Positions 4,424 through 41,363 of a DNA stretch of 64,000 bases are shown piece by piece; the first letter of the stretch is position 1, and each line of letters opens with the position of its first letter. The stretch lies in IMG/VR virus record IMGVR_UViG_3300028840_000472; one strand, 5' to 3'. This stretch comes from a virus. Its lineage: Duplodnaviria > Heunggongvirae > Uroviricota > Caudoviricetes. The notes beneath the pieces were generated by a model. That model was not told the DNA's origin, ran no database searches, and was given only the letters and a program-made list of their open reading frames with translations. The position numbers and the translations under genes are program-made.

Positions 4424-5920
4424 TTAGCCCTGTTCCTTGATGCCTGCAGCCTTGCCGTCCGCATCGCGTACGATCTCGAAGCTGCGTTGCAGTGGAGTGA
4501 CGCCGGCGCTTTGCATAAGCCCGTCGCCGCTGGTGTCGCTGTCGTTCTTGATCTTCAGCTTTTCGTCGTCGACGCTGGTGCCGTCCGGGATAATCTCGCC
4601 TTCCTTCAGGTTGTGCAGGAACGTGTCTTGCGAGATCTCGCCGGCCTGCTTCGCCTTCATTAGCGCGATCAGTTTGTCCGCTGCCATTTGCGACCCGACG
4701 AAGTCCTTGTTCAGTGTTAACTTGATCTTCTTGATTTCGCCTTCGCTGACGTTCAACCATTCCGCGTACCACTTCAGAATCTGCGTTACGGCTTCATCTG
4801 CGACACCAGCCAGTGCGGCAAGGATCGACCCTTCGCCGCTTTGTCGCATTCGGTGCGTGTCCGCTGCTTCGACGCCCTTCTTCTGCTCTTCGAGCATCCG
4901 CGCGCCCAGCACAGCCATCGCGTTTTCCTTGTCCTTCTTCAGATCCCGGAGCGCGCCCAGCCCCTGTCCAGAGTATTCGAGATACTTAGCGTCGGCTTGC
5001 GGGTTGTCTGTGACCCACGCGACGCCGCTGCCGATCGTGTACGTGTTCTTCGCATTGAATCCCATAAGGACCGGAGTCGGAAGCGCTGTAAAGTGTGCGC
5101 CGTGTTCAAGGTCGGCGCTTGTGCGGTAGTGCGAAAGATTGACGTCTGCAAGGTCAAGTAGTGGCGGCTTCTTCGGTGCGGGTTCGTCGTCGGTCGCGTT
5201 GATGAACTTGAAGGGAATGTAGTCAAGCTGCTTGCCGTTGATTTCCGGGACAATGGCTTCGCCGTGTCGCACCCACTGATCCTTGTCGTTTTTGCGATAG
5301 ACAAGATGCTGATAGACGAAACGCTTTTCGTCTGCTGGCGAATCGCCGTCAGCTTTCGCAAGCCGAAGCAGCCGGATCTGTGTTTTTGTTTCAGGTTCAA
5401 AAGCGTCTTTGCCATAGTCGTTGTACTCTTCTGCGAGTGTGACCATCACCAGCTGCATGACGCCCTTCACGCGTTCAGTGCGCCAGTTCAGGATGTTCTC
5501 TGCCTTGTACTGCGATATGTAGGGACGGTTGTCTTCGCCTTCTTCCGTTGCTGCGTCGACCAGTAAACCGAAGCGACCGACTTCGACCTGCTCGCGTATT
5601 ACGCGTCGAAGCAACACGTCGACGTTGCTGCCTTCTTCGGTGACGTCGTTCAGGTCTTCTTTTTTCGACTTCGGGAAGTCAAGGATGTATTCCTTGCGGA
5701 AGATCGCGCCGGACAGCGCGTCGACAGTGCGCCCGGTAGCGCCGAAGTACAATGCACGCATCTTGTACGCGCTGTACTTGCCGCCGGTTTGGCCTGTCAG
5801 TTGTGGTAGGTATTTCGTGCCGCGCGCCTTGACGGCATCTGAACCTGCGGCGGTGTCGCGGCAGCGTTCCCAGAATGGCGCATACTTGTCATGCTGCGGA
5901 TGTTTACTATCGATCGGCAT
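4424..5920 (-). CDS. Portal protein (498 aa)
   Basis: Size and position immediately downstream of the terminase large subunit; general portal-like character. Call is by synteny. Confidence 0.55.
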   Translation of the reverse strand: MPIDSKHPQHDKYAPFWERCRDTAAGSDAVKARGTKYLPQLTGQTGGKYSAYKMRALYFGATGRTVDALSGAIFRKEYILDFPKSKKEDLNDVTEEGSNVDVLLRRVIREQVEVGRFGLLVDAATEEGEDNRPYISQYKAENILNWRTERVKGVMQLVMVTLAEEYNDYGKDAFEPETKTQIRLLRLAKADGDSPADEKRFVYQHLVYRKNDKDQWVRHGEAIVPEINGKQLDYIPFKFINATDDEPAPKKPPLLDLADVNLSHYRTSADLEHGAHFTALPTPVLMGFNAKNTYTIGSGVAWVTDNPQADAKYLEYSGQGLGALRDLKKDKENAMAVLGARMLEEQKKGVEAADTHRMRQSGEGSILAALAGVADEAVTQILKWYAEWLNVSEGEIKKIKLTLNKDFVGSQMAADKLIALMKAKQAGEISQDTFLHNLKEGEIIPDGTSVDDEKLKIKNDSDTSGDGLMQSAGVTPLQRSFEIVRDADGKAAGIKEQG

Positions 5921-5959: not shown

Positions 5960-7402
5960 TTACAGTCCGACGATGTTGACCACCGCTTCTTCGTGTTTGG
6001 CCTGCAGAAGTCGATAGCGGCATTCGTCCGCGATATGATCTTCTGCATCCGTGTCTATGTCGTCCGTGTCACGTTCCAGCCGGCTTAACGTGGGCACGGT
6101 TCGGACGAACTGTACACAATTCTGAAAAATAAGCAAGCCCGGTTCCTCGAAAGTGGGAGCGATTACCGCTTTCAGGCGGTTGCGAATGATCTCCCAGCCT
6201 GCCTTCCGACTGCCCGGTGCTTTATTCGCCGGTTTCCATGTAACGCCCTTGGCTTCCATTTCTTTAGCGATGCAGTGCCCGTCTTCCGTGGTGTAGATCG
6301 CAGAATCAGCCGGCCCCGGTTCCACGCGCCCCTGCAGCCCCATGGCGGATTCCCGTTCGAGGATCCCTGTCGCAACGTCCTTCGCGAGCATCTTCGACCC
6401 GACGTTCGGTTCCTGCCTTTCGGGATCCCAGCCGTACCATTCGGCGATTCGGAACACGGTCCCGCGCGGGAAGTGTCGCACTGTGCCGTCCGTCATGGTT
6501 GCCGGCGTGCCGTCCGATTCCGCCCACCATGCGACAGAAAACGGCTTCGAGGATCCCCAGTCGAACGACCGGTCGATGTGCCACGATGTCGGCACGGCGA
6601 ATGGCCGGATCACGTGGCGGCTTCGATCCCAGACGTCGTCGAACATGCCGCCGGCGACGATGTCCCAGTCGCCTTCGCGCATCGCCCGCACAAGTTCCTT
6701 GTTGCCCAGTCCTTCCAGCCGCTGTTCGTATTCGGGATCCGATTCCATTAGCGCCTGATTGTCTTCCAGCTTCGCCGGGATGTACTGGCGCTTCAGACCG
6801 CCTTCGCCGCGCGGCATCGTCATGATCTCGAAGGCCGGCTGCAGGTCGATGAATGTCTTCTTCACCCAGTTGTGCCCGACGCCGCCGGGGTTCGCGCCGT
6901 TGATGATACGCGGGAAAAAGCCCTGCCACAGCGGATCCAGATCCAGACCCGCCAGTCGCACACGACCGCGCAGGTAGCGGTAAATGCTGTCCGTGAAGTG
7001 CGTTAATTCGTCGACCGCCAGCACGTGTATTTCCGCGCCCTGATAGTCGAACTTGTTCTTCTCATGCTGGCAATGGCACAGATGAATCTTCGCCTTGTTC
7101 CAGAACTGGATGTAGTTCTTCTGCGTGTTGATCGACACGTACTTCTTCGCGACCCATGGTGCGAGCATGGCCGGGAAGGATGTCGGACCTTCCATGTGAT
7201 TCTTCCACAGGTCGGGGTAGGTACGGCGGAACAGGTAGAACTGCAGGAAGGGAACCTTCGAACACCAGTAGATCGCCGCGCAGCGCATTAGGTGCGACTT
7301 GCCGCCGCCGGCTGCGCCCCCGTACAGCAGTTCTGTCGCATTGGTCGTCAGCGCCCGCGTCTGCTTCGGTTGCAGATCGATGTCGACGTCGGCGGCTGGC
7401 AT
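5960..7402 (-). CDS. terL: Terminase large subunit
   Basis: Walker A motif LLYGGAAGGGKSH at the N-terminus, 480 aa, with a nuclease-type C-terminal half. Confidence 0.85.
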   Translation of the reverse strand: MPAADVDIDLQPKQTRALTTNATELLYGGAAGGGKSHLMRCAAIYWCSKVPFLQFYLFRRTYPDLWKNHMEGPTSFPAMLAPWVAKKYVSINTQKNYIQFWNKAKIHLCHCQHEKNKFDYQGAEIHVLAVDELTHFTDSIYRYLRGRVRLAGLDLDPLWQGFFPRIINGANPGGVGHNWVKKTFIDLQPAFEIMTMPRGEGGLKRQYIPAKLEDNQALMESDPEYEQRLEGLGNKELVRAMREGDWDIVAGGMFDDVWDRSRHVIRPFAVPTSWHIDRSFDWGSSKPFSVAWWAESDGTPATMTDGTVRHFPRGTVFRIAEWYGWDPERQEPNVGSKMLAKDVATGILERESAMGLQGRVEPGPADSAIYTTEDGHCIAKEMEAKGVTWKPANKAPGSRKAGWEIIRNRLKAVIAPTFEEPGLLIFQNCVQFVRTVPTLSRLERDTDDIDTDAEDHIADECRYRLLQAKHEEAVVNIVGL

Positions 7403-7741
7403 CTATTCCGTGCGCAAGCGCAGGTTCAGTGTCGGCCCCGTATCGTCGTCGTCGTTCGTCGGCGGATCTTCGGCGCGCAGCTTCGGTGTCGTGTACTGCG
7501 CGATCTCGCTGTGTGCCTTCATGCGCAGGTTCAGGGGAATGTTCTGTGTGTTCGCCAGCTTCGCCAGCTCGACCAGCGGATGATAGTCATCCGGGACGCC
7601 GTCGTCGGCCCGCATCAGTTCCAGCAGGTCCGCCCGTTCCCGGTCCATTTGCCGGCGTTGCGTGCCCGGACGCGGCGTCTTGATCGGTTCACCGACCCGC
7701 AGCGCCGGTGCTTTCGAGGATGTCAGCGGTCCGTCGTCCAT
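7403..7741 (-). CDS. terS: Putative terminase small subunit (112 aa)
   Basis: Stop abuts the terL start; basic N-terminal half and acidic C-terminus; preceded by a sigma70-like TTGCCG-17-TATATT promoter. Confidence 0.4.
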   Translation of the reverse strand: MDDGPLTSSKAPALRVGEPIKTPRPGTQRRQMDRERADLLELMRADDGVPDDYHPLVELAKLANTQNIPLNLRMKAHSEIAQYTTPKLRAEDPPTNDDDDTGPTLNLRLRTE

Positions 7742-7869: not shown

Positions 7870-8210
7870 AAGTGTCGTCGCGCGTACGCGCGCGCGCATA
7901 TATGGGCAAAGTTTTTTTTCGACCCTTCAAAAAAATAGGCGCACCACCCCCTTTTATATACGAATCAATAACCTGCAGCAAAGGTAGCAGTGAGGTAGCA
8001 CCTGTGCAGCGCTGTAAGTCCCTGTTTTACAACGGAAGGTAGCACGGAATCACAGGTAGCACAGAAAAAACGTGATTTTCGAAATTAAAAAATTTTCCCC
8101 ATATAGCAAGTGATTCACACAAAAAAATAAAGGTTAACTTGTTGAATTTTAAGCAAAAAAAAGGTAGCGACCATGGTGCTACCACGGTGCTACCTTTGCT
8201 ACCTTGTGAG
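7870..8210. repeat. Iteron-like GGTAGCA(C) array with AT-rich spacer and an alternating (CG)n(TA)n tract; copy A of a roughly 200-bp duplicated non-coding element
   Basis: GGTAGCA copies at about 7983, 7994, 8038, 8055 and 8163, with inverted GTGCTACC copies at about 8176, 8187 and 8197. A roughly 100-bp AT-rich tract lies between the two repeat sets. The 26-nt alternating Pu/Py stretch cgcgcgtacgcgcgcgcgcatatat is at about 7876-7901. The segment is homologous to 45345..45545. Confidence 0.6.
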
Positions 8211-8367: not shown

Positions 8368-8628
8368 TCACCGACCCGATGGCAAGCCCTTGTCGTGATC
8401 GTGGCTACAGCCGCACCACAGGCCGCTGTACGTGCCGTCCGCCTTGATGCTGTAGCACTTCATGTCGCCGACCCGGAATTCAACCACGGTCGCCTTCCCT
8501 GCAGACCGCACCAGCGCCCCTGTACCGCGTTCCGCTGTCGCATAGATGTCAGCGGTCCCCATAGTCAGGAAAATGGCTGTTAGCGCCCCACAGACGCCCG
8601 TACGGTCAAGAATGTGTCTCTTCTTCAC
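8368..8628 (-). CDS. Small secreted protein (GTG start, 86 aa) with N-terminal signal peptide
   Basis: ORF track; GAGAGGA RBS 8 nt upstream of the GTG; hydrophobic N-terminal segment ILDRTGVCGALTAIFLTMGTA; four Cys. Confidence 0.4.
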   Translation of the reverse strand: MKKRHILDRTGVCGALTAIFLTMGTADIYATAERGTGALVRSAGKATVVEFRVGDMKCYSIKADGTYSGLWCGCSHDHDKGLPSGR

Positions 8629-9109: not shown

Positions 9110-9415
9110 TCATTTACACCACAGCCCCGCGCGTGTCGCGACGCACGTGATGTTCGGGAATTCGGTATGCTTGATGATCCAGATCGGCCCGTCTTCGGTG
9201 TCGTAGCGGTGCACGTCGCCGGGGAATGGCTGTCCCTGTACCACGGGATCCGGCCCCGGTCGTGCCTTCTCGCTGTACTCGCGTTCTGCCGGCCTGTCGT
9301 CGCCTATCAGGCGTTTTTCCACGACAGTGCACGACTTGCCCACGACCGCCGCCAGAATGCCCAGAATGGACACCACGATGACCAGTTCGATGATCGTGAA
9401 GCCCTTCACTTGCAT
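9110..9415 (-). CDS. Type IV prepilin-like / pseudopilin-like protein (101 aa)
   Basis: N-terminus MQVK-G-FTIIELVIVVSILGILAAVV matches the class III (prepilin peptidase) signal: short basic leader, Gly at -1, Phe at +1, Glu at +5 and a hydrophobic helix. C-terminal CVATRAGLWCK gives a disulfide-loop-like pair. Confidence 0.6.
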   Translation of the reverse strand: MQVKGFTIIELVIVVSILGILAAVVGKSCTVVEKRLIGDDRPAEREYSEKARPGPDPVVQGQPFPGDVHRYDTEDGPIWIIKHTEFPNITCVATRAGLWCK

Positions 9416-9720
9416 TTCTTCAAATCCCCTTTCTTGTGTTCATCCCACCATTGCGACAACGCCGGGTTTTCATCGAAATCGTAGTTCATGCGTGCCAGCG
9501 CCCGACACGCGCTGCACAGCAGCTGCTTCATCGTGACGCGCCCGGTTTCAGCGGCTTCTGCGATCGCGATCCCGCGCGCATGGTCTGCCCCGTACTGCGG
9601 TTCCCACGAATGCGGCCCCGGATGCCCTGCATCCAGATAACACGCTGCCGGTTCAGTGCTGTAGTCAGTGAAGCGCTGCCCACCGTCACGCGTACGCCCG
9701 CACGGTCCGCGACACGGCAT
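9406..9720 (-). CDS. Hypothetical Cys-rich protein (104 aa)
   Basis: TAATG overlap with the MazG stop and ATGA-type overlap with the pilin start. Only the C-terminal part of track ORF 9406..10143 is used, because the N-terminal part overlaps MazG out of frame. Confidence 0.35.
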   Translation of the reverse strand: MPCRGPCGRTRDGGQRFTDYSTEPAACYLDAGHPGPHSWEPQYGADHARGIAIAEAAETGRVTMKQLLCSACRALARMNYDFDENPALSQWWDEHKKGDLKKCK

Positions 9721-10241
9721 TACCGGTTGTCCCCGTCGCCATGGATCAGCCCCCGGTCTTCCCGGTCGCCCAGTTTTGACAGGTTGTCGTTTGCGACACT
9801 TTCCATCGTGCCGGCCATGGTGTCGATGATATACAGCAGCGCGCCCAGCAGAAGCCCCAGATGGTGAAGGATCTTGTCGCGCCGGCCTTCGAGCGCTTCC
9901 CCGCCCCGGATGACCTTCTTCCCCTGTTCGGCGATCGCGCCGGCATGAACGAACATCCAGCCGGCGGCATCCAGTGCCGACCCGTAGTGTCCGCCGACAA
10001 TTTGTATCGCGCCCAGTGTGCGCCCGCACGTGATCGCGACGGCGTTGCAGTACCACAGCACGTCGCCGCATTCCTTCAGGATGTCGTCGGTCATGACCGA
10101 CTTCGACGCCAGCTTCATGTACGTTTCGGATGTCTCGCCGCACAGCCCCAGCGCTGGATACGCAATGTCGCTGCCGGCCTTCGGGTAGATGGCGAACTTG
10201 AATGCCCGCCCGCTATAGTCGTCAAGTTGTTCTGGTGTCAT
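9720..10241 (-). CDS. mazG: MazG-like nucleoside triphosphate pyrophosphohydrolase
   Basis: EExxE...ExGDxLW-type motif: LCGETSETYMKLASKSVMTDDILKECGDVLWYCNAV. Confidence 0.6.
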   Translation of the reverse strand: MTPEQLDDYSGRAFKFAIYPKAGSDIAYPALGLCGETSETYMKLASKSVMTDDILKECGDVLWYCNAVAITCGRTLGAIQIVGGHYGSALDAAGWMFVHAGAIAEQGKKVIRGGEALEGRRDKILHHLGLLLGALLYIIDTMAGTMESVANDNLSKLGDREDRGLIHGDGDNR

Positions 10242-11397: not shown

Positions 11398-11666
11398 TTG
11401 ATGCGCAGTTCGCGCTGCTCGCGCTCACACCACGCGACAACATTCTTCGCTTTCTCGAAGCTTTCGTAGCGCCTGTCGCTGAAGCTGCCGCGAAATATCG
11501 GGCACGTAATCGTCTTGATCTTGAAGAAGCGATTCCCGTCGTCGTCAAGGCATTCGTATATGTGCCATTGCTTGTGCTTCTCGTAGTATTCCATCACCTT
11601 GAAAAAGCCCTTGATCGCAGCCGCAAGTAACAGCAGGATCGGTAGCAGGTAGATTTCGTCGCCCAT
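11373..11666 (-). CDS. Small membrane protein with N-terminal transmembrane segment
   Basis: ORF track; LLPILLLLAAAIKGFF hydrophobic segment. Confidence 0.4.
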   Translation of the reverse strand: MGDEIYLLPILLLLAAAIKGFFKVMEYYEKHKQWHIYECLDDDGNRFFKIKTITCPIFRGSFSDRRYESFEKAKNVVAWCEREQRELRIKCTRRTDA

Positions 11667-11989
11667 TATTGTTGCTGCTCCTTCGGCGGTGCTTCTTCGT
11701 AGTGGTACATGTACATCTTCTTTTCCTCGATGCGTTGCGACACGCCTTCCAGTACGCGCGGGTAGCTGATAACGCGCGACGTTGCGATCATTGCCAGCAC
11801 GGCATACAGGTCCGTCAGTTCGTCTTCGAGTGCTTCAGCATTCGTCGGCGATGGTTCACGCGACGGAAAACGTTCATCCGGTCCGTGTCGCAACAGCTTC
11901 GATATTGCCTGCTGCACTTCGGCGCACTCTTCCGCCAGCACGATCAGCAGTTCAACCTGTCGCGCGCTAAGTTCGACTATTCCTTGCAT
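11666..11989 (-). CDS. Hypothetical all-alpha protein, possibly MazG/NTP-PPase-like
   Basis: ORF track; EECAEVQQAISKLLRHG resembles a MazG-family metal-binding helix. Weak. Confidence 0.3.
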   Translation of the reverse strand: MQGIVELSARQVELLIVLAEECAEVQQAISKLLRHGPDERFPSREPSPTNAEALEDELTDLYAVLAMIATSRVISYPRVLEGVSQRIEEKKMYMYHYEEAPPKEQQQ

Positions 11990-13074: not shown

Positions 13075-14046
13075 CTAGCGCGAGATCTTGAACGCGTTTT
13101 CGAGTACGCCGTTCAGATCCATAAGTGAATTCGTTCCCGGTGCACCTGTCGGCACGCCGTAGACCTTGACGTTCGGTCCAAGGTTCTGCGCCCATTCGAT
13201 CGCGGCGACGTACTGCGCGCCCGGTCCTGTGTACGCGTTCGTCAACAGACGCGCGCCTTCGGCTTCTGCAGACTTCACCGCCAGAATGCCCTTCGCGATT
13301 TCTTCCTGCTTCAGTCGTTCGCCTTCACCTTCCAGCCGGCGTTTCTCGCGTTCTGCTTCGGCTTCCTTGATGCGCTTCTGTTTCTCGCCTTCGGCGATGT
13401 TCGCGATCTTGACGGCGGTATTCTCCGCCGCTTCCGCCTTGCGTTCTTCGATGATCACCTTCTGCGCGGCCATGGCTTTTTCTTCCAGTGTCGCAACGAA
13501 CTGCGCATTCGTGAAATCGATGTCGCGCAGGTTGACGGTAATCAGGAAGCCGCGTTCCTTCAGCTTGTTGTCGAGTATGGTTTGAATCGCCTGCTGTACG
13601 CCTTCACGCCCTTCGCTGGTGTAGATTTCATCCGACAGCTTCGACGGCACCTTGTCGCGTATCGCGCTGCGCAGTGCAGGGAACACGACTTCTTCCCAGT
13701 AGTCCGGCCCGATGTTTTCGTGGATCCACGGCACGCGATCAGGCTGCAGTCCCATTTCCAGCGACACGTCGATCAGTACCGGCTGACCGTCTTTCGTTTG
13801 TGTCTCGACGTCTTTCAGCACGTACTGGCGAAAGCGTACATCGTAGATCGGCACATCGTACGTGACCGGATTGATCCAGTGCAGACCGGTGTCCAGTGTG
13901 TCGTCCTGCATTCCCTGCCCGATGCCGATCTTCTTCACTTTCAAACCGGTTTCACCCGGATCGATGTCGGTCAGTCCGAACACAAAGAACAACGCCAGTA
14001 TTGAAACAAGACCGACGCCAGCGCTTAAAGATATTATGTTCCGCAT
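13075..14046 (-). CDS. SPFH / band-7 (stomatin/prohibitin/HflC-like) membrane protein
   Basis: N-terminal transmembrane segment, then an SPFH core (DVPIYDVRFRQYVL...TKDGQPVLIDVSLE...LSDEIYTSEGREGVQQAIQTILDNKLKERGFLITVNLRDIDF) and a C-terminal EA-rich coiled coil. Start set at the internal ATG (TAATG overlap). Confidence 0.75.
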   Translation of the reverse strand: MRNIISLSAGVGLVSILALFFVFGLTDIDPGETGLKVKKIGIGQGMQDDTLDTGLHWINPVTYDVPIYDVRFRQYVLKDVETQTKDGQPVLIDVSLEMGLQPDRVPWIHENIGPDYWEEVVFPALRSAIRDKVPSKLSDEIYTSEGREGVQQAIQTILDNKLKERGFLITVNLRDIDFTNAQFVATLEEKAMAAQKVIIEERKAEAAENTAVKIANIAEGEKQKRIKEAEAEREKRRLEGEGERLKQEEIAKGILAVKSAEAEGARLLTNAYTGPGAQYVAAIEWAQNLGPNVKVYGVPTGAPGTNSLMDLNGVLENAFKISR

Positions 14047-14276
14047 TAGTTGTTCCCCTGCATCTGGTTTGTTTTCGCGACTTGTGAGTACAACCAGTAC
14101 ACGCCGCATTGTGTACAGTACAAACGCTTCCCGTCGCTGACGATGCCGTGATCAGCGTCGATCGGACATTCATACATTTCTTCGTACCACAAAGATTCCT
14201 GCATACTCTGCGGATGAAGATCTTCTGTTTCGCCCTGCGATTCTGGCGGTAACATTATCGTCGACTTATTTGTCAT
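14046..14276 (-). CDS. Small zinc-ribbon-like protein (CPID...CTQC)
   Basis: ORF track. Confidence 0.4.
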   Translation of the reverse strand: MTNKSTIMLPPESQGETEDLHPQSMQESLWYEEMYECPIDADHGIVSDGKRLYCTQCGVYWLYSQVAKTNQMQGNN

Positions 14277-18304: not shown

Positions 18305-18826
18305 TTACGCGTTAGCTTTTTCATCGCGCATCCCCTGCATGTACTCTCCGCCCTTTGCGTCGATGATACGCGACACAACCGCGTGTGACACTTGGCAATT
18401 GCGCGAGATCTGACCGATCGACATATCTGTGCGGTAGTAGTAGAACAGCACGCGGTCTTCGAGTTCTGGCCGCGTCTGGAAGCGCCCTGTCGTTTGTCGC
18501 CTGCCGGCAGTGCGTCGGGATCCGGTTCCGTAAAACGGCACCCTGCGGACCTGACAGACGAACACAGCGACGTCGTCCGGGTCGGTGATACATGTCGTAG
18601 ATTGCGACACGCGATAATAGTTTTCACCGGGTCGCCGGATGCCGTCCTTCACCGGATCGTGAATTTTGTCGCGCATGGAATTTAACGTCGCCGCCTTTGC
18701 GTTCAGCAGCAGTTCGCGCGCGGCAGTCGCCGCGCCCATGGTCGGATAGCATTCGTGCGGGTAGTGTTCTTCACCGACGTCGTCTGTCGCATCCTTCGAC
18801 ACGTACAGCATGAAAACTTCCTTCAT
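18305..18826 (-). CDS. DNA-binding protein with C-terminal HTH (about 173 aa)
   Basis: ATGA overlap with the upstream stop; GGTGGA RBS; C-terminal RTDMSIGQISRNCQVSHAVVSRII HTH. Confidence 0.4.
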   Translation of the reverse strand: MKEVFMLYVSKDATDDVGEEHYPHECYPTMGAATAARELLLNAKAATLNSMRDKIHDPVKDGIRRPGENYYRVSQSTTCITDPDDVAVFVCQVRRVPFYGTGSRRTAGRRQTTGRFQTRPELEDRVLFYYYRTDMSIGQISRNCQVSHAVVSRIIDAKGGEYMQGMRDEKANA

Positions 18827-19740
18827 TCGTCCACCTTGTAGTCTGATTTGATAATCCCGTTTTCCCGCGCACCGACGATACACGGATGCACGTACACGTC
18901 GCGCTGCTTGTCCGTGCCGCGATGCAGCCGGCGGTAGTGCCCGCGCCGCACGTGCATCGCCGGCGATGCGTGTGTCCCTATGTGTTCGATGTAGCGCTTG
19001 TCGTTATGCTGTGGCAGCTTGATCGTATGGTACTGTTCCAGCGCGATGCCTTTCTTCTTCGCGCGCATCTGCTTCAGTCGCGACGGCGTCACCAGTTCAA
19101 TGTCGACGTTTATCGCGTTAATCAGCGTCAGTATGTCCATTAATATTGTCGCGCCGCTATCGCACATGTTTAATGCTTCGTCTTTGAAGTCCGGCTTGAT
19201 GTCAAAACCGCCGGCAAACGAAATCAAGCGACGTTCTTCAAGGCCGCTGTCATCGACAATTGTATCGATTCCCCATTTCAATATCCCCGCAGTCATGAAC
19301 GGCACGAACAGCGGCTGATCATTCCAGCGCAGGTACGGGATCATCATCGTATATTCGTTGTCTTCGTCTTCGATGCAATGCAGCGCGCAGGTTGCGACCT
19401 GTGCGTGCACAGTATCCCCGTCGCTTATGTCAATATCGTAGAAGAACACACAATCTGGAAACGGCAAACGCTGCAGCGGAAGATTTTTCTGCGGGTCATA
19501 GCCGTGACTGTCCGGCACGTTATACAGATCGACGATAAACATCTTCGCCCGCAGTGATCGTTCGCCCATGGTTTGCGCCCAGTGATGCGCCACAGGTTCG
19601 TCTGTAATTTCGAAATAGTCGCCGACTTCATTTGTCGACTGCCGCGTCGCGTGCAATAGGTTCATGTACTCCCCCGGCATTTCACGGAATGCCGTCATCG
19701 TACGACGGAACATGTCGATCTCTTTCGCGGTTGTGTGCAC
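18823..19740 (-). CDS. Hypothetical protein (305 aa)
   Basis: ORF track. Confidence 0.5.
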   Translation of the reverse strand: MHTTAKEIDMFRRTMTAFREMPGEYMNLLHATRQSTNEVGDYFEITDEPVAHHWAQTMGERSLRAKMFIVDLYNVPDSHGYDPQKNLPLQRLPFPDCVFFYDIDISDGDTVHAQVATCALHCIEDEDNEYTMMIPYLRWNDQPLFVPFMTAGILKWGIDTIVDDSGLEERRLISFAGGFDIKPDFKDEALNMCDSGATILMDILTLINAINVDIELVTPSRLKQMRAKKKGIALEQYHTIKLPQHNDKRYIEHIGTHASPAMHVRRGHYRRLHRGTDKQRDVYVHPCIVGARENGIIKSDYKVDE

Positions 19741-30812: not shown

Positions 30813-32792
30813 TTAGAGATCTTCCATCGTCCCCCAGTTCGGCCCGCGCTCGCCGTCCACGACGACCGGGATCTTCAGCTGTATGCAGTTTTCCATGATG
30901 TCGACCAGTTCCCGAAAACCTTCTGCAGCTTCCTGTGTGCCGCTGTCGCTGAAGTTCAGTTCGTCGTGGACCGTGATCAGGGGGATCCCTGTCGCGTCGA
31001 ATACGCCGGCCCTGTGCGCGTCACGCATGGCTTTCTTCATCATGTCAGCGGACGATCCCTGCAGGACCGCGTTCAGTGCCGCGTGTGTGCCGGCGCGCTG
31101 GATGTTCGACCCGTATTCCCTGATCGCGTCTTCCTTCGGCAGCGGTTTCATTTTGTCGCGTTCGGCCTTGTCCATGAAGTTCGCCGATTCGAACAGATCG
31201 AAACGCCGACGCCGACCGAGTACCGTCTTCACGTACCCGCGATTCTTTGCCGTGCTGATTGCAAGGTCGTACGTCTTCTTCACGAACGGGACGCCTTCGT
31301 GGTACGCCTCGAACAGCGGCGTCGCTTCCTTCACGGTCATGCCAAGATTTGCAGCCAGTGCTGGCACGCCCATCCCGTAGCACAGCCCGAAGTTAATGTT
31401 CTTCGTCGGCTTGCGGTCCAGCATGATCGCAGTTATCACGTGGATAAGTTCGCGCGTCATCTGGTGATAATCTGTCTTCGGATCCTTGCGATAACGTTCG
31501 CGCGCTTCGTCTGCACCGGGACCGACAGCGAAGTGTGAAAGCAAGCGATATTCGATCTGCGAGTAGTCATAGCGACGCCAGTACGGATCGCCGGGATCTG
31601 GAATAAACAGCGAACGGATAAGCGGCCCGATAATCTTGTCGCGTGATGGTATGTTCTGCAGGTTCGGGTTCGATGAACTGAAGCGCCCGGACACTGTGCC
31701 GTTTTCGTCACCGCGTAACGGATGGAACTGCGCGTGTATGCGGCCATTGATCACGCTGCCCAGTATGTGCCCGTCGATGAACGTGCCGATCGTCTTGTCC
31801 AGACTGCGGACCTGTACGATCATCTGCGCAAGTTCGCTTTCGTGATTTTCCAGCCACGCCTTCGTGAACGACGGCTTCTTCGTTTTCGCTGTGTGCGGGT
31901 AGTGTATGCCTTCGGCATCGAATGCACGCGCGATAGTTTCTGCTGCCCATACGTCGACCGGCGCGCCCGCCATCTTGTTCAGCTTCTTCTGCAGTTCCGC
32001 CTGTTGCCCGCGCATCGTTGCGCGTACTTCATCCGCGCGATCGACGTCGACTGCGACACCGTGCCAGCGCATTTCCAGCAGCAACGGCAGCAGATCCGTT
32101 TCCAGCTGAAACAGTTCCAGCAGTTCCTGCTTTTCAAGTTCGCGTCGCTGCAGATGCCAGATGCGCAGCGGAAGATCGACGTCGCCTTCAGCGTACGGAC
32201 CGACCAGCTGCACCGGTGCGCGATAAATATTCCCGGCCTGATCTTTACGCGTGAACTTTCCGCCGTACGTATCCGCCAGCCAGTGATACAGATCGTTGTC
32301 TTTCTTTCCTTCGTTCAGCCACTGACGCGCCAGCTTTTCCAGCGCGTAGGAAAACGCGTTTTCGTCTAGCAATGCCTGCGCGCTTTGCACGTCGATCAGA
32401 TCGCCGGCAACGTTCACGCCGTCAGCGCGCAGCATCGATACGTCGTACATCAGGTTCGCGCCGATCTTCGGTTGATGCGGACGCGACAGTTCTTCGCGCG
32501 CCCAGCGAAGCACCATTTCCGGGTCCATGTTTTGATGCCCGAATTCGTGCCGCATGGGGAAGTACCAGCGCCCGCCGTCGTCGGTGCCGACCGCGATGCC
32601 GACGATCTTGCCGTCGCCGCGTATGTCGCCGGGTCCGTCCTGCTTCAGTCGCTTGTCCTTGGTTTCGACGTCGATCGCGATTTCCTTCGCGGCATCCAGC
32701 CGGGGAAATTGTTGCGGCGGCGTCCAGCCTGTGTCGGGAACCTTCGCTGCCAGATCTTCACGCGACAGCAGCATACCCTGTTCGCCCTTCAT
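30813..32792 (-). CDS. polA: Family A DNA polymerase (Pol I-like) with N-terminal 3'-5' exonuclease domain
   Basis: Exo motif IAIDVETKD. Polymerase motif B KNINFGLCYGMGVPALAANL and motif C LITVHDELNF. 659 aa. Confidence 0.85.
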   Translation of the reverse strand: MKGEQGMLLSREDLAAKVPDTGWTPPQQFPRLDAAKEIAIDVETKDKRLKQDGPGDIRGDGKIVGIAVGTDDGGRWYFPMRHEFGHQNMDPEMVLRWAREELSRPHQPKIGANLMYDVSMLRADGVNVAGDLIDVQSAQALLDENAFSYALEKLARQWLNEGKKDNDLYHWLADTYGGKFTRKDQAGNIYRAPVQLVGPYAEGDVDLPLRIWHLQRRELEKQELLELFQLETDLLPLLLEMRWHGVAVDVDRADEVRATMRGQQAELQKKLNKMAGAPVDVWAAETIARAFDAEGIHYPHTAKTKKPSFTKAWLENHESELAQMIVQVRSLDKTIGTFIDGHILGSVINGRIHAQFHPLRGDENGTVSGRFSSSNPNLQNIPSRDKIIGPLIRSLFIPDPGDPYWRRYDYSQIEYRLLSHFAVGPGADEARERYRKDPKTDYHQMTRELIHVITAIMLDRKPTKNINFGLCYGMGVPALAANLGMTVKEATPLFEAYHEGVPFVKKTYDLAISTAKNRGYVKTVLGRRRRFDLFESANFMDKAERDKMKPLPKEDAIREYGSNIQRAGTHAALNAVLQGSSADMMKKAMRDAHRAGVFDATGIPLITVHDELNFSDSGTQEAAEGFRELVDIMENCIQLKIPVVVDGERGPNWGTMEDL

Positions 32793-33784
32793 TGATCGCG
32801 TACGCCCATGATCGCCCCGTCGATGTTCGACTTGTTCGTGAAACCCGACGCCGACGGATACGCCTTCACGTCAAGATGTGTCGCAACGCGCAACACGCGC
32901 GCCAGTAGATCCGCGCGCCATCGGCTATCTTCTTCCGGCAAGCCGTTGACCTGAACGAACGCGTCAGCGTCCCCGCTTTCGTTGTGGTACGCGCTGACGA
33001 CACCGCCGCCGATTTCGATACACGGGAACGACTTCTCACAGAACGGCGTCAGATCTTCCAGTGCCTTCAGAAGCCCGTCAGGGACCGCTGCAGCGTCCCT
33101 GCAGTCAGGGACAACCCTGTCAAGGTCAGGCACGTCGCCGGCGTTATACAGCGCCGTGCGCAGCCATACGTCGCCTATTTTGAACGTCGCCGAACTGTCC
33201 GACGCCCGGATCGCTTCGATCGGCTTATTGATTCGCAGCAGTTCATGAACGGCGGCATCGGGCAGCGCCAGCGCCAGCCCCGGATCCAGATCATCTTCGA
33301 AGATCCGCACCATCGTCATGCCGTCGGTGCCGTAGATGTAGCCCTTGCGTATGACGACGCCGCGCATCCAGATCCGCCCGCTTTTCTTGTCGGCAGAAAA
33401 CGCGCTGGCGATCTTCAGCGAATCGATCAACCCGTGTTCGAGTGTGTACTTCTCGCCTTCAGGAAACTGTCGCGGGAAGTTAATCGACGGGACCAGCGGG
33501 ATCGATGCCTTGAAGCCCTTAGACGTCACCTGAAGCCGTTTCGCCGTAGCCTTGACCTGTGCGTCGTCCCGCTTGTTAAGCGCCGCCAGCAGCTTGTCAG
33601 CCGGGACACAGATGCCCTGCAAATCGAACGGCGATGGCATGTCGACAGCGACGGCGTTATTGACGACCTGCATCCGCGACGGACCGTCGTCTGCGACGCG
33701 ATAAAACAGGACGCAACGCAACGCGTCATGTTCTGCTTTGTTGTTCACGACAGCCTTGATTATTTTCTTATGTAGCGCTTCCAT
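32789..33784 (-). CDS. DNA polymerase sliding-clamp-like protein (DnaN/beta-clamp fold, 331 aa)
   Basis: Segment ...SINFPRQFPEGE...RIWMRGVVIRKGYIYGTDGMTMVRI matches the beta-clamp ...FP.lp...R..L.GV.l....l..vATDG.RLa pattern. 4-nt overlap coupling with polA. Confidence 0.5.
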   Translation of the reverse strand: MEALHKKIIKAVVNNKAEHDALRCVLFYRVADDGPSRMQVVNNAVAVDMPSPFDLQGICVPADKLLAALNKRDDAQVKATAKRLQVTSKGFKASIPLVPSINFPRQFPEGEKYTLEHGLIDSLKIASAFSADKKSGRIWMRGVVIRKGYIYGTDGMTMVRIFEDDLDPGLALALPDAAVHELLRINKPIEAIRASDSSATFKIGDVWLRTALYNAGDVPDLDRVVPDCRDAAAVPDGLLKALEDLTPFCEKSFPCIEIGGGVVSAYHNESGDADAFVQVNGLPEEDSRWRADLLARVLRVATHLDVKAYPSASGFTNKSNIDGAIMGVRDQ

Positions 33785-33787
33785 GTG

Positions 33788-34411
33788 TCAGTCCTCGAAC
33801 TTGTCCAGCGTGCAGTTGAATATACCCGGACCGTCGTCCACGGTAGACGCCGCGACACAGATGTGATCGAAGTCCAGCTTGTCATCGTCGACCAGTCCGA
33901 ACGGCATCCCGGTTTCTGTCGCGATCGCCATGCGGAATTCGTTTATCGTGAAATCCTCCGACGCTGCAGTAGCTGCTTCGTATGCGTACTGTACATTGTC
34001 ACCGTACAAGTAGACACCAGTATCTTCTTCGACCCACAGCTGCTTCGCGTGCACGATGTTATCGTCTTCGACGTCGTACGGAAACGCCGCGACGTCTGTT
34101 ATTGTTCGCTTGTTATTCTTTCTCCCCCAGCTTACCCGACCGGCGACGATGTACGGATCATCGCCGAAGAAGTATGGAAACACCACCCACGACCCGACGT
34201 GTACAGCTGACAGCTGCCAGTGCCCGCCATTATCGCTGCCTGTCAGTTCGTTAAGGTTCAGCAAGCAACGCCTGTGCATTGCTTCGTATAGCGCACTGCC
34301 CACAGTCGGAAGGTTAGCCACGATGTTGTCCCCTGTAATAGATCGGGCGGATAGGGTTATAGCGCTACACGTCTGTAGCTGCGTGCAGGGATCAGACTTA
34401 ACTGATCCCAC
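33788..34411 (-). CDS. Hypothetical protein (up to 207 aa; start uncertain)
   Basis: ORF track. Confidence 0.35.
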   Translation of the reverse strand: MGSVKSDPCTQLQTCSAITLSARSITGDNIVANLPTVGSALYEAMHRRCLLNLNELTGSDNGGHWQLSAVHVGSWVVFPYFFGDDPYIVAGRVSWGRKNNKRTITDVAAFPYDVEDDNIVHAKQLWVEEDTGVYLYGDNVQYAYEAATAASEDFTINEFRMAIATETGMPFGLVDDDKLDFDHICVAASTVDDGPGIFNCTLDKFED

Positions 34412-34444
34412 CCCTAACTAGCACGCGTTCATCGCCCGAATTCG

Positions 34445-34996
34445 TTAGTCCCTGAATATCGGCGCGTCCATTCCTGCCGGCAGTACAAGGTAGTATTTGC
34501 CTGCGCGGAACTGACGCCCGTACCCCTTGCGAACCAGATTGTGATCACGCCAGAAACGCTTCGGATCAGGGTAGTCAGCGACTTTGCAAAGTTCTTCTAT
34601 TGTAGCACCGTTAGCCAGCGCCGCGACGACTTTGCCGATCCGGCTATTGCGACGCAGCGGCTTGACTTCGGCAACCTTTTCCAATGCGCCGACGTCCTTC
34701 GTTGCCTTCATCGAAATCGTACGATCGACGAACTGTGTGCGCGTCATCTTGTCGGCCAGCATAGCGATCGCCTGCACCTTGTTTGTGTCGACGCTGATAT
34801 GGCTTTCGTCAGATTCGCACAGGTTGTTATACAGTGCGACAATCTGTCCGATGGTCAGCGGGTTCAGGTCGTCGCGGTTAGCGTCTGCGATGTACCAGTT
34901 GAACTTCATGCGCCGCGCCATGTTGCCGGCGGCTGCACGTGTCGCAAAACGCGCCTTGACCTGCAGGGTGTCCAAGTTAATTAAATATGTCGGCAT
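34445..34996 (-). CDS. Hypothetical protein (183 aa)
   Basis: ORF track; GAGGACACGAACATG leader. Confidence 0.45.
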   Translation of the reverse strand: MPTYLINLDTLQVKARFATRAAAGNMARRMKFNWYIADANRDDLNPLTIGQIVALYNNLCESDESHISVDTNKVQAIAMLADKMTRTQFVDRTISMKATKDVGALEKVAEVKPLRRNSRIGKVVAALANGATIEELCKVADYPDPKRFWRDHNLVRKGYGRQFRAGKYYLVLPAGMDAPIFRD

Positions 34997-35050
34997 GTTC
35001 GTGTCCTCTAAGGTTGTGGGGCGTCCCTGCCCCGTTGTAGTCCGTTGTGA

Positions 35051-36031
35051 TTAGGCGACCAGCTTCAGTGCCATGTTATGCGCTTTCTGCTTCATGCGAT
35101 TGCCATCGCCGAACCAAGCACTGTTCATGCGGTTGTCGATCGTGCGTGTCTTGCGTTCGTGATCCGTGAACCGGGACACTGCATTGACCAGACCCCATGC
35201 TGTACCGCGTGCGCTGACCGTATCCTGACCGACACCATTGTGGAAGATGTCAACCATCGTAGCGATGCGACGCTGCACCTTGTTGTCCTCGACGTTGAAG
35301 CCTTCGTCTTCGGTGTCGTAGAACAGATCGACAAAGAATTCGACGATTTCCTTCTTGCCGACCTTGCGATCAGACAGCGCTTCGCTTTCTTCGATGTAGC
35401 GGGTCCACTCTTCGCTACCGATGTTCAGCTGCTTCTTCACAGTTTCAGCATCGAACACAGTGTGGTGCGGAATGCGGATGTCCGCCTTCTCGCCGTTCTC
35501 GCCGACTGCGAAGCGGAACGTGTTCATGCAAACAACACGAACAGAAGTTTCCGTCGCGATCGTCGACATGCGACCATCGTATGAAGTCGCCAGCATGATG
35601 TAGCGCAGCAGCTGGTCTTGACCCTTCAGACGGAATTCGTCGCCGGTCTTGGCAAGCGCCCAGATCCGCTGACCGCCGCGAAGACTGCCGGCTGTTTCCA
35701 TGTTGAAGCCGTGCGCTTCGATCAGTGACTTGTAGAAGTCGATCACGTCACGCGGCTGCACAATGTTGTAGCCTTCGTCGACTACGGACAGCACCGCCTT
35801 CGTATCGTCGCGAACCAGAACCTGCCGGCTGGGAACTTCCAGCGCGTCGCCGGTATCGGGATCCAGATACATCGCCGGCGCGCCGATAACGTTGTGATCC
35901 AGACCGGCAGCGATGCGCCACTTGTCAAGATCCGCGTCGGCATCCATGGGAACGCCTAGCCCGTGCCACGGGGTGTCGCCGAAGTATGCGATGTTCGCCC
36001 TGCCGTTACTCATATCGATTTCTGCTGACAT
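35051..36031 (-). CDS. DUF932-like phage/plasmid-associated protein (326 aa)
   Basis: Size and overall sequence pattern recalled for the DUF932 / TIGR03299 family. Promoter variant TTGACATCTATTC at 36099..36111 with an AAGGAG RBS. Confidence 0.4.
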   Translation of the reverse strand: MSAEIDMSNGRANIAYFGDTPWHGLGVPMDADADLDKWRIAAGLDHNVIGAPAMYLDPDTGDALEVPSRQVLVRDDTKAVLSVVDEGYNIVQPRDVIDFYKSLIEAHGFNMETAGSLRGGQRIWALAKTGDEFRLKGQDQLLRYIMLATSYDGRMSTIATETSVRVVCMNTFRFAVGENGEKADIRIPHHTVFDAETVKKQLNIGSEEWTRYIEESEALSDRKVGKKEIVEFFVDLFYDTEDEGFNVEDNKVQRRIATMVDIFHNGVGQDTVSARGTAWGLVNAVSRFTDHERKTRTIDNRMNSAWFGDGNRMKQKAHNMALKLVA

Positions 36032-36098
36032 TGGTCTTACTCCTTGTGTTAGTTCTGTAGTTTGTCGTGTACTGCAGGGACTACATTACGACACGAAG

Positions 36099-36111
36099 GA
36101 ATAGATGTCAA
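36099..36111 (-). promoter_or_regulatory. Early promoter variant TTGACATCTATTC (copy 9)
   Basis: -35 TTGACA with 17-nt spacer to TAATGT; 80-nt leader with AAGGAG RBS. Confidence 0.5.
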
Positions 36112-36203
36112 CACTTTTATGAAATTTTTTTCACGGCGTTTGCGACATATAAAGAAAATGGGACGACGGCGCGGGCATCGAAAATGCACCGCCGCCCCCG
36201 TAA

Positions 36204-36431
36204 CTAGGCGCGACGCCTGCGACGTGTCTTTGTAATACGCGAAACAGGTTTCGGAAGGATCGCGTCCATCCGGCCTTCCCAAAAGCGCAGCGTTTCGGTG
36301 CGGTCAAGAATGTCCGCCGCGCTTCGCCCCTGCCAGTAACGCGTAAAATCATAACAACGTCGACACAACCCGCGCGCGATAACGTCTTCGCTATAACATC
36401 CGGGCATCCTGCACGATTGCTTGTCACTCAT
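36204..36431 (-). CDS. Small zinc-finger protein (CRMPGC...CRRC)
   Basis: ORF track; GAGGACAGAACTATG leader. Confidence 0.4.
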   Translation of the reverse strand: MSDKQSCRMPGCYSEDVIARGLCRRCYDFTRYWQGRSAADILDRTETLRFWEGRMDAILPKPVSRITKTRRRRRA

Positions 36432-36496
36432 AGTTCTGTCCTCTATCTAGTTCTGTGGTTCTGAATTTGCGACTGTATCGTCGCCCTGCTTAAAAG

Positions 36497-37963
36497 TCAA
36501 ATGTCGTAGTATTCATTCCCGATCGGATCCAGCACGAACAGGTTGTGACGTGCGCGCGTCAGCCCCGTGTAGAAGACGCGATGCTCGTCGTCCGGTGACA
36601 GGTCATAACTTTGACGCGTTCGATATGTGATGTCAGTACACAGTACGACGTTGTCTGCTTCGCCGCCCTTCACGCTGTGAATCGTCCCGGTGTAGATGCG
36701 CGGTTCGTCCGTTAGCTTTTCACCGTTGCGCAGTATCGACTGGTAATACTGTCGCGTCGCGTCGCCGATCGTCAGCAGCTGGTCGTACCACGGCAGTTCG
36801 AAGTTCACACCGAAGCGCTTCACGTCGTCGCGTGTAACGTGTTCGTCGTCTTCCACATGCAGGTCGATGCGGTTGTGTCCAAGGTAGCCGTTAACGTGTT
36901 CCAGTGCGTGCCCTGTGATGCCTTCGCCCTTGCGCAGTGCTTCGTATAAAATTATCGCGCGCACTTCGTCTTCGTCGACCGACGACTTTCGCGTCGTCTT
37001 GTACGCGTAGCCAAGCAGTTCGATCTGGTGCCTGAAGTCCTGCAGGAAGTGATGCGAGCGCGCGAGAAACATCCACGTCCCGTTCGCAAGATCGAACTCT
37101 TCGTCGACCGTCGCGCGTATCACGTTGCCTTCGTGCCCTGCCGACTGCCAGTTCTTCGCGTAGCGACGTCCAATGCGTTGCGACACTTCGTTCGCCATGT
37201 CGAAGATCGGACCGGGCAAGCGGTAACTGACCGGCAACACTTCCGGCGCGTCGCTGATCTGCAGGAAGTGATTCACGTCAGCGCCTGACCAGCGGTAGAT
37301 CGCCTGATCGTCGTCGCCTGCGACATAGATTTCAGGGACGTTGCGGAACATGTGCTGCGCGACCTGCCACTGCTTCACCGACAGATCCTGCGCTTCGTCA
37401 ATGATCACGACGTCGAGATCAAGCGGTTCGCAGTTGTCGACGAAACGGTCCAGCATGTCGTCGAAGTCCAGCTTGAACATGTCGCGCTTGTAGTGCTTCA
37501 GGGAATCCGCGAAGTATTTCAGCGCGTGCCACTCCACGCCTTCCCCTGTCGCGTGCCACGCTTCTTCCAGCGACGTGCATGTCGCCCGTGCATAGCTGAC
37601 GATCTGCAGCATCTTGGACCCGTCAGCGCCTGCAGGGATCGGTCCTTCGGCATCCGTGAATGAATTGAACCCCATCCCGACAAGGTTGCCGAAGTCGCGG
37701 TAGTCGCGGTTCCCCATGACTTCGCTTTTCGTTACGTTCGCGTGCGCGTACGCGATAGAATGCAGCGTCCTGAAGTATGGCAGCTGGCTGCGGTCGAAAT
37801 CGAAACGCTTCGCCGCGCGTTCCGCTGCTTCGTTTGCAGCCTTGCGTGTGAATGACACGAACGCGATACGCGACGGATCGATACCGCTGGCGATCTCTTC
37901 TTCAACGATCGACAGCAGCCGCGTCGTCTTGCCGGTCCCCGGTCCGCCCAGTATAAGCCGCAT
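36497..37963 (-). CDS. Superfamily 1 DNA helicase (UvrD/Rep-like)
   Basis: Walker A LILGGPGTGKTT, motif II VVIIDEAQDLS, C-terminal FYTGLTRARHNLFVLD (UvrD_C_2-like). Start overlaps the primase stop. Confidence 0.7.
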   Translation of the reverse strand: MRLILGGPGTGKTTRLLSIVEEEIASGIDPSRIAFVSFTRKAANEAAERAAKRFDFDRSQLPYFRTLHSIAYAHANVTKSEVMGNRDYRDFGNLVGMGFNSFTDAEGPIPAGADGSKMLQIVSYARATCTSLEEAWHATGEGVEWHALKYFADSLKHYKRDMFKLDFDDMLDRFVDNCEPLDLDVVIIDEAQDLSVKQWQVAQHMFRNVPEIYVAGDDDQAIYRWSGADVNHFLQISDAPEVLPVSYRLPGPIFDMANEVSQRIGRRYAKNWQSAGHEGNVIRATVDEEFDLANGTWMFLARSHHFLQDFRHQIELLGYAYKTTRKSSVDEDEVRAIILYEALRKGEGITGHALEHVNGYLGHNRIDLHVEDDEHVTRDDVKRFGVNFELPWYDQLLTIGDATRQYYQSILRNGEKLTDEPRIYTGTIHSVKGGEADNVVLCTDITYRTRQSYDLSPDDEHRVFYTGLTRARHNLFVLDPIGNEYYDI

Positions 37964-39492: not shown

Positions 39493-39545
39493 AGTAAAAA
39501 ATGACGCGCCCGGAATCGGGCGCGCCCCTTCGCTGCTGTTGTTGT

Positions 39546-40394: not shown

Positions 40395-40451
40395 TTCAAT
40401 TACTCCTTGAAGGTGTCCGCATTTTTATCGCGCTGCGAACTTCGACGCGTG

Positions 40452-41006: not shown

Positions 41007-41010
41007 GGTC

Positions 41011-41361
41011 TTAGCTCCTGATGTTTATTTGCGTCGCTATGTAACGGCGCTGCCTGCCGTCCCATATCAGCGTCTTATAGCGGCCCCTGTTGTTATCATG
41101 TGCAACGCATGTCGCTGCGCTGAACGCGTTAGGATCGCCGCACGAAACGATGTAGTCGTCGTCGCTGAAGTCTTTCATTTTCTGCTTCAATTTCTGGACC
41201 CACGGTGCCGGCGATAACATTACCTTCCCCGGCGGCAGCAGAACTACTATTTCGCCGTAAGCGCTCGCTGGTGTCAAGTCTATTGTGGCTTCGAATTCCC
41301 CTGTCTGTTTGTTGCGACGTGTTGGTATTTGCGGTACGTAAACAATCGGCCTTTTATCCAT
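41011..41361 (-). CDS. Hypothetical protein (116 aa)
   Basis: ORF track. Confidence 0.45.
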   Translation of the reverse strand: MDKRPIVYVPQIPTRRNKQTGEFEATIDLTPASAYGEIVVLLPPGKVMLSPAPWVQKLKQKMKDFSDDDYIVSCGDPNAFSAATCVAHDNNRGRYKTLIWDGRQRRYIATQINIRS

Positions 41362-41363
41362 GG

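Follow-up and report, generated by a model that had tools for sequence, protein, structure and literature searches.

Why would a phage encode a solitary protein that starts like a type IV pilin, and how far into the protein does the likeness extend? The question is raised by a gene within a 64,000-nucleotide stretch of DNA (the window) from the Caudoviricetes virus record IMGVR_UViG_3300028840_000472, whose product was described in an earlier note, made from the sequence alone, as a phage-encoded type IV prepilin-like protein. That note had placed the open reading frame (ORF) at 9110-9415, and this is indeed where the gene lies, on the minus strand and encoding 101 amino acids. The phage origin likewise stands, since the window holds terminase, portal, tape measure, a gene transfer agent (GTA)-type tail, DNA polymerase, primase and helicases. 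As set out below, profile matches and shuffled controls indicate that the class III (prepilin) signal of the protein is genuine, whereas the C-terminal part resembles no pilin that we could find. We tentatively propose that the protein tampers with type IV filaments of the host.

A genuine class III signal at the N-terminus

The product, MQVKGFTIIELVIVVSILGILAAVVGKSCTVVEKRLIGDDRPAEREYSEKARPGPDPVVQGQPFPGDVHRYDTEDGPIWIIKHTEFPNITCVATRAGLWCK, begins with MQVKG followed by FTIIELVIVVSILGILAAVV, a class III signal whose layout can be read as MQVK-G/F-TII-E-LVIVVSILGILAAVVG, the slash marking the cleavage site. It thus has a basic leader of five residues with Gly at -1, followed by Phe+1 and Glu+5. 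The hydrophobic segment is ~21 residues long (Kyte-Doolittle value 2.79 over residues 7-25), and AlphaFold (AF2) predicts a helix at residues 8-27 with a block-mean predicted local distance difference test (pLDDT) score of 84. Two curated models score above their cut-offs, Pfam N_methyl PF07963 with 26.4 bits (gathering cut-off 21.2; E 4.7e-6) and NCBIfam TIGR02532 with 26.9 bits (cut-off 16.3), which places the protein in the N_methyl family by threshold as well as by the features of the signal itself. The best sequence matches in the Protein Data Bank (PDB) are the N-termini of solved pilins (geopilin and PilA chains, e.g. geopilin 9egp_A), with ~80% identity over residues 3-27. Written as a regular expression, the signal pattern has a single occurrence in the window when translated in six frames, and 600 shuffled windows taken together also gave just one, which argues that it does not occur here by chance. 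On these grounds the class III signal is genuine, and the claim of the earlier note, a class III signal with Glu+5 and a hydrophobic alpha1 helix, is borne out. Cleavage after Gly5 by a prepilin peptidase of the PilD/GspO family is predicted.

The gene itself is real. A codon model trained on the long genes of the phage gives its frame +27.5 bits and the other five frames -1 to -91, so that it is the sole frame with a positive score; a ribosome-binding site precedes the start codon (Table 1), the upstream ORF ends within the first codons of the gene, and the same protein is called as a gene, identical in sequence, on 6 contigs of the 50-200 kb size class. The 10-nt overlap also suggests co-transcription and translational coupling with the upstream ORF, the C-terminal 35 residues of which match phrog_34941 (function unknown; E 4.9e-10). 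The N-terminal part of that ORF has a weak coding score in the codon model.

Beyond residue ~27 the protein resembles no known pilin

All profile and sequence matches, whether to Pfam, NCBIfam, six PHROG families or PDB sequences, end at residue 25-35, and none includes a pilin head. The GspH, GspG and PilA models remain far below their cut-offs and match the N-terminus only, and the NCBIfam models give no similarity to FimU or GspH past residues 4-30. An exhaustive phmmer search of 1.84 billion (1.84e9) representative proteins returned no homolog of the C-terminal ~75 residues; it found the protein itself and four matches to the N-terminal motif, several of which are frameshifted pilin read-throughs. 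A word-indexed search retrieved the protein itself only, a scan of IMG/VR with the protein retrieved nothing, and tblastn against 50,697 phage records yielded only a short ORF of phages ValKK3/XZ1, considered below. When the N-terminus of canonical PilA was searched against phages by tblastn, it hit three records that look like bacterial contigs, the low-complexity filter probably masking the hydrophobic segment. Finally, neither a class III signal nor a homolog of the C-terminal domain or the flanking small genes is present in 107 loci with related terminases (37-72% identical; 1.29 Mb in all, the query phage's own loci included). Since the region is unconserved even in phages with 60-72% identical terminases, we regard it as hypervariable and, as far as these searches reach, the prepilin-like gene is a singleton within an accessory region.

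The protein was modelled with AF2 at full length and as the soluble part alone. Both are single-sequence predictions and hence of limited weight, and a pilin fold is best described as not shown rather than as refuted. In the full-length model, most of residues 28-54 have pLDDT values below 50, and so do the corresponding linker residues of the soluble-part model. The four-strand beta-meander at residues 66-100 has values of 80-85 in the full-length model and 77-82 in the soluble part. Fold searches of the PDB and BFVD with the model gave no significant match and no pilin among the matches; among the BFVD neighbours, all of them weak and non-significant, are small phage 'lipoproteins' composed of an anchor and a small beta domain. 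In a structural sense, then, the term 'prepilin-like' does not hold: there is no similarity to any pilin past residue ~27, and these comparisons indicate that the pilin resemblance is limited to the first ~27 residues. A hydrophobic i/i+3-4 stripe (Val27, Leu31, Ala38, Tyr41 and Ala45 in mature numbering) makes a kinked amphipathic alpha1-C conceivable, a helix for which the computed models give no support.

The C-terminal cysteine pair that had been noticed earlier is present; Cys91 lies in predicted strand three (90-93) and Cys100 in strand four (98-100), where they may form a D-region-like pair. A third cysteine, Cys29 at the membrane boundary, had gone unmentioned, and the total is odd. 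A lipoprotein was considered and rejected, because VGKS-C is no lipobox (Lys at -2 is disallowed).

A singleton without homologs that has an odd number of cysteines and a linker predicted to be disordered could also be a decaying fragment, i.e. a piece of a captured host pilin gene that was joined, out of frame, with unrelated DNA and that selection does not maintain. We consider this very unlikely, since the frame is intact, is the only positive one and has a phage-like codon score, and the ribosome-binding site and start/stop overlap are those of expressed phage operons. In addition, two independent single-sequence runs gave the beta domain a pLDDT of ~80, a value unusual for a random sequence, and a decaying fragment would sit uneasily with the identical copies on 6 contigs.

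A possible role in tampering with type IV filaments

The window is part of an 88,079-bp contig, ENA ERZ27256798 k141_2638583. Because different samples yielded this contig with differing start points, it probably represents the whole genome of a phage with circularly permuted DNA. Over ~82 of the 88 kb there is no other class III signal or second pilin, and Pfam detects no assembly genes for pili or a type II secretion system (T2SS), be it ATPase, platform, peptidase or secretin. The earlier remark that no pilus assembly genes accompany the gene thus holds for the window and for this larger part of the contig. Being solitary and without assembly genes, the protein presumably has to use the machinery of the host.

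What could such a protein do? The reading that we favour, tentatively and with slightly less than even confidence, is that it tampers with type IV pili (T4P) or secretion filaments of the host as a poison, cap or decoration, plausibly resulting in superinfection exclusion. As would be expected from what is known of class III signals, the protein would insert N-in/C-out via its hydrophobic alpha1-N, after which the host prepilin peptidase (PilD/GspO family) would cut off MQVKG and N-methylate Phe+1. The mature 96-residue protein would enter the pilin pool of the inner membrane, and its alpha1-N, with Glu+5 and Gly+14, could dock on the assembly platform and on other pilins. Because a recognisable alpha1-C and globular pilin domain are lacking, and a flexible linker and a disulfide-capable beta domain take their place, it might then act as a poisoning, capping or decorating subunit; at high expression, it could additionally compete as a substrate of PilD. 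T4P would be stopped or altered, possibly together with T2SS or competence pseudopili. The benefit for the phage could be that an infected cell is no longer a target for pilus-dependent phages, i.e. superinfection exclusion; alternatively, progeny would not be wasted on infected cells and host surface functions would be shut down. Each step past the possession of a class III signal is what we infer.

Several observations are consistent with such tampering. Glu+5 and a methylated N-terminus are of specific importance for subunit docking in type IV filaments. The N-terminus is ~80% conserved and the rest no longer recognisable, as would be expected if selection acts on the signal and alpha1-N; both seem to have been held near the consensus by purifying selection while the remainder became unlike anything known. 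The cultured relatives infect Proteobacteria, in which T4P and T2SS are common. The location of the gene, among small, co-oriented, non-structural genes, overlapping its neighbour and within an unconserved region, is by analogy typical of an accessory host-interaction gene. The decoy and superinfection-exclusion idea of the earlier note is in our view reasonable by comparison with published systems; the concept has already been published and is therefore not novel.

A number of points weigh against this reading. The pilin-fold check that the earlier note had suggested came out negative: neither AF2 run (full length or soluble part alone) predicts an alpha1-C helix, so that none is packed on the sheet, and the models lack the pilin 'lollipop' fold, in which an alpha1 of ~50 residues is packed on an antiparallel sheet of 4-5 strands. 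Mature position 22 is a Lys, and the helix-breaking Pro+22 is thus absent; this proline is typical of T4a major pilins and GspG and is not universal among minor pilins. Models without pilin packing, albeit from single sequences, and the missing Pro+22 put entry into a filament in question. Furthermore, the presence of T4P, T2SS or PilD in the host is assumed. The genome gives no sign that the phage or its competitors use pili, the tail being GTA-like and the 522-aa fibre-like protein having no phage match. The singleton status of the protein, no relatives having been found in the searches, counts on the same side, as does the lack of any match for it among the PADLOC defence models.

The pilin-derived part could instead serve as an anchor only, holding the beta domain at the inner membrane, on its periplasmic side, for a task unrelated to type IV filaments. 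Such a task might be blocking the DNA entry of superinfecting phages, as T4 Imm/Sp and lipoprotein-type exclusion proteins do, or binding peptidoglycan, or modulating an envelope enzyme. We consider both the plain anchor and tasks of this kind rather unlikely, while granting that the C-terminal part has no pilin features, that the 'lipoproteins' among the weak BFVD neighbours are also built from an anchor and a small beta domain, and that a further small exported protein is encoded two genes downstream (8368-8628). A mere anchor would not need Gly-1, Phe+1 and Glu+5, which favours a docking role; the full signature including Gly+14 has been kept ~80% identical to pilins while the rest is unique, and for mere anchoring phages normally rely on Sec signals, lipoboxes or plain transmembrane segments.

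Docking and a novel domain might also be combined in a chimera, with the class III signal and alpha1-N loading a non-pilin beta domain as cargo at the base or tip of a filament, either as a chain terminator or cap or as an effector that is surface-displayed or exported. This is distinctly unlikely in our estimation; if true, a virus would have taken over a type IV filament system in order to position an effector of its own, and this effector would have a novel fold.

Comparison with pilin-like proteins of bacteria and phages

With bacterial pilins and pseudopilins (PilA, GspG, GspH, geopilin PilA-N), the protein shares the length and charge of the leader, Gly-1, Phe+1, Glu+5, Gly+14 and alpha1-N; it differs from them in having no Pro+22, predicted alpha1-C, pilin head or co-encoded assembly genes. 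Six PHROG families (13280, 10597, 11263, 27437, 11596 and 3433, 'pilin') share the N-terminus, in alignments that cover residues 1-26 only. Closer in kind is ORF231 of the lytic T4-like Vibrio phage ValKK3 (AJT61072.1), a protein of 67 aa encoded in the early region and annotated 'PulG pseudopilin', which consists of MKSKG/FTLIELIVLIAILGILASVAAG and a 40-residue tail and aligns with 38% identity over residues 1-47 (E 8e-3). Like ORF231 and the PHROG type, the protein described here is phage-encoded and solitary, combines a class III signal and alpha1-N with a short idiosyncratic tail, has no recognisable pilin head and is sited among early or non-structural genes. It thus has the properties of the short solitary phage prepilin-like ORFs (up to ~110 aa, signal plus alpha1-N, no pilin head, non-structural position). 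The likeness ends within the first ~26-47 residues, however; the C-terminal domain is unrelated, and we found no homology to the ValKK3/PHROG type past the signal and alpha1-N. In addition, the present protein is longer (101 aa) and has a predicted folded beta domain and a Cys pair. We infer by analogy that the gene may act like the known solitary phage prepilin-like proteins, which are an established concept; what is distinctive here is the ORFan C-terminal beta domain.

Tip and Aqs1 act on PilB, and PfsE acts on PilC; to our knowledge, none of these three non-pilin inhibitors is a prepilin peptidase substrate or a pilin mimic. The likely outcome would be the same as that proposed here, namely a T4P receptor that is lost or altered and, as a result, superinfection exclusion. 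Inactivation of the PilB ATPase by some phage inhibitors of T4P has been reviewed (PMC11436027; PMC13436744).

The most direct precedent for a phage pilin comes from Sztanko et al. (Cell Rep 2026, PMC12952977). They showed that FimU mimics encoded by prophages (P-FimU) become part of the pili of P. aeruginosa and block pilus-tip phages. They also reported proteins resembling PilA, both from prophages of Xylella and from non-temperate phages, the latter in four groups; included is a truncated PilA of ~60 residues in six Pseudomonas phages that was proposed to incorporate into or inhibit T4P. With the P-PilA groups and the truncated PilA, compared here by their published description and not by sequence, the protein shares a pilin N-terminus in non-temperate phages, for which a block of adsorption was proposed. 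Those proteins were found by similarity to host PilA, whereas in the present case the likeness to PilA ends with the signal and alpha1-N. Similarly, P-FimU of the F10-like Pseudomonas aeruginosa phages is a pilin-family member that relies on the pilus machinery of the host in phage-versus-phage competition. P-FimU proteins are full-size minor pilins with the FimU fold and extra loops that act from prophages and leave the pili functional, and the protein here is smaller. Over its whole length it is similar to neither host-type FimU nor PilA, the matches being N-terminal with no full-length homolog. By curated thresholds, the protein is a member of the N_methyl family and no demonstrable member of any pilin head family or of the P-FimU/P-PilA groups.

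Could it nevertheless be a functional replacement in the manner of P-FimU, i.e. a diverged, assembly-competent minor or major pilin that alters the surface seen by other phages while the pilus still works? The precedent just mentioned speaks for it, and the four-strand meander with Cys91 and Cys100 is loosely like a minimal pilin head with a D-region. We nonetheless regard a replacement as unlikely, considering that no alpha1-C is predicted, that Pro+22 is missing, that nothing past residues 1-30 resembles FimU, PilA, GspG or GspH, that the mature protein is just 96 residues long, and that the genes examined show no sign of lysogeny, whereas P-FimU acts from prophages.

Should tampering with host filaments be confirmed, an environmental, probably virulent proteobacterial siphovirus would join the phages that carry pilin mimics, in support of the suggestion of Sztanko et al. 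that the expression of receptor components is widespread among phages as a means of shutting out competitors. The combination of a perfect pilin front end and a unique beta domain of ~45 residues could also become a compact tool for probing which subunits the assembly platform accepts or rejects, and possibly for blocking T4P and T2SS. At present, there is good support for annotating it as 'prepilin-type N-terminal cleavage/methylation domain protein, phage accessory gene', its function being a proposal, and it does not amount to a new principle.

Genomic context and host

The coordinates of the gene, its parts and the principal modules of the phage are collected in Table 1.

Table 1 Features of the prepilin-like gene and of the surrounding phage genome (positions in the window)
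Feature	Position	Strand	Remarks
Prepilin-like gene, complete, 101 aa	9110..9415	minus	ORF list; ATG 9415-9413, stop 9112-9110
Leader MQVKG, residues 1-5	9401..9415	minus	Predicted prepilin-peptidase cleavage after Gly5; PF07963 and TIGR02532 above curated cut-offs
Mature N-terminus, residues 6-26, FTIIELVIVVSILGILAAVVG	9338..9400	minus	Phe+1, Glu+5, Gly+14, hydrophobic alpha1-N
Charged Pro/Gly-rich linker, residues 27-57, including Cys29	9245..9337	minus	Low pLDDT, composition
ORFan C-terminal beta domain, residues 58-101	9113..9244	minus	Predicted strands 66-73, 76-83, 90-93, 98-100; both AF2 runs
Shine-Dalgarno-like AAAGGGGA	9425..9432	minus	9 nt 5' of ATG, within 3' end of upstream ORF; read from sequence
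Upstream ORF, 104 aa as called	9406..9720	minus	TGA stop 9408-9406; 10-nt overlap with prepilin-like start
Portal	4424-5920		Pfam/PHROG
Large terminase	5960-7402		Pfam/PHROG
Small-terminase-like gene	7403-7741
DNA polymerase A	30813-32792
Processivity factor, primase, helicases	32789-42944
Sigma-factor-like gene	46381-46959	minus	192 aa, Sigma70 region 4 PF04545, E 1.7e-10
Amidase_2 endolysin candidate	47133-47594
Fibre-like proteins	48100-50393
GTA-type distal tail module	50397-56108	minus
Tape measure	56109-59846

With few exceptions, the genes lie on the minus strand. The replication module is followed by many small genes, most of them unannotatable, and the prepilin-like gene closes this series; downstream of it lie a 124-aa gene, an 86-aa gene, a 620-bp AT-rich gap and then the packaging genes. 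With a small membrane protein whose gene precedes the packaging genes by ~1.4 kb, one might expect a particle protein, which the earlier note had entertained, or a lysis protein of the holin or spanin type. Both are hardly credible: the gene lies outside the head and tail modules, among small non-structural genes and separated from the small terminase by two genes and the 620-bp regulatory gap, its product has a transmembrane segment and matches no structural or lysis family in PHROG, and the Amidase_2 endolysin candidate is ~38 kb away, a distance that rules out membership of a lysis cassette. Moreover, we know of no class III signal as a feature of holins or spanins.

No integrase was found among the genes examined, a check that was not exhaustive, and the phage is probably virulent. 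The nearest cultured relatives by terminase, polymerase and tail protein all infect Proteobacteria, and the closest relative of the terminase in an isolate genome is found in Methyloversatilis universalis (62% identity). The host is probably a Gram-negative proteobacterium.

Two further candidates around the gene were discarded. The first was a cassette with the flanking genes; the 124-aa gene has its homologs in low-GC phages that are unrelated to this one, where they adjoin head-morphogenesis genes and no prepilin gene is close by, and the upstream ORF is without relatives. The second was a promoter just downstream (TTGACA-17 nt-TAGTCT, 9077-9049, minus), which was seen by eye and fails a consensus scan, the number of matches in that scan being equal to the shuffle expectation.

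The 86-aa ORF (8368-8628, minus) has a Sec-type signal peptide, MKKRHILDRTGVCGALTAIFLTMGTADIYA/TAERG, three further cysteines and no family match. On the other side, just upstream of the prepilin-like gene and within 2.3 kb, are two separate genes for MazG-like pyrophosphatases (9720-10241 and 11666-11989, both minus), with matches to phrog_229 (E 2.5e-14) and PF03819 (E 2.7e-5). The same small-gene region includes candidate host-interaction genes at 18823-19740 (minus), 13075-14109 (minus) and L001 4553-4804, the products of which are, respectively, a 305-aa protein with a weak AcrVA2-like match, a Band_7/SPFH membrane protein (phrog_200, 'lipoprotein') and an 83-aa protein with a weak match to Lar restriction alleviation.

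Other features of the phage genome

The heptamer GGTAGCA, often extended to AAAGGTAGCAC, occurs 19 times as compared to 3.9 expected, and 12 of the copies fall into two tight clusters. The first (7983-8203) has seven copies in both orientations within the AT-rich gap of 620 bp, which is free of ORFs and lies just before the small-terminase-like gene, and the second (45437-45536) has five copies in the intergenic region at ~45.45 kb. The clusters have the look of promoter elements or of repeated sites to which a phage regulator binds; pac or terminase recognition sites are a further possibility. The sigma-factor-like gene lies ~850 bp from the second cluster, and the repeats may be promoter elements of its product. 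Six unannotated ORFs of 70-157 aa at 43141-45252 are on the plus strand in an otherwise minus-strand genome; this block coincides with a local reversal of AT skew, ends near the second cluster and is possibly a divergent early transcription unit.

The distal tail module comprises DUF2460, Phage_BR0599, NlpC/P60 and a 1113-aa Rcc01698_C/'GTA host specificity protein', with best matches of ~30% to phages of Caulobacter, Rhodobacter, Roseobacter and Microcystis. For replication and packaging, the genes are similar to those found in phages of gamma- and betaproteobacteria, and these differing affinities indicate that the genome is mosaic. A candidate receptor-binding protein is the 522-aa fibre-like protein (48100-49668, minus), which has no match in the 50,697 phage records and bears a Laminin_G_3/concanavalin-like lectin domain at its C-terminus (E 2.9e-19). 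Finally, between the head and tail genes, at L111 1174-6998 on the same contig past window position 64000, are genes for an MptE-like/DUF115 protein (PF01973), an NAD-dependent epimerase/dehydratase and an S-adenosylmethionine (SAM) methyltransferase; these sugar-modification-like genes may point to the glycosylation of either the virion or some structure on the host surface.

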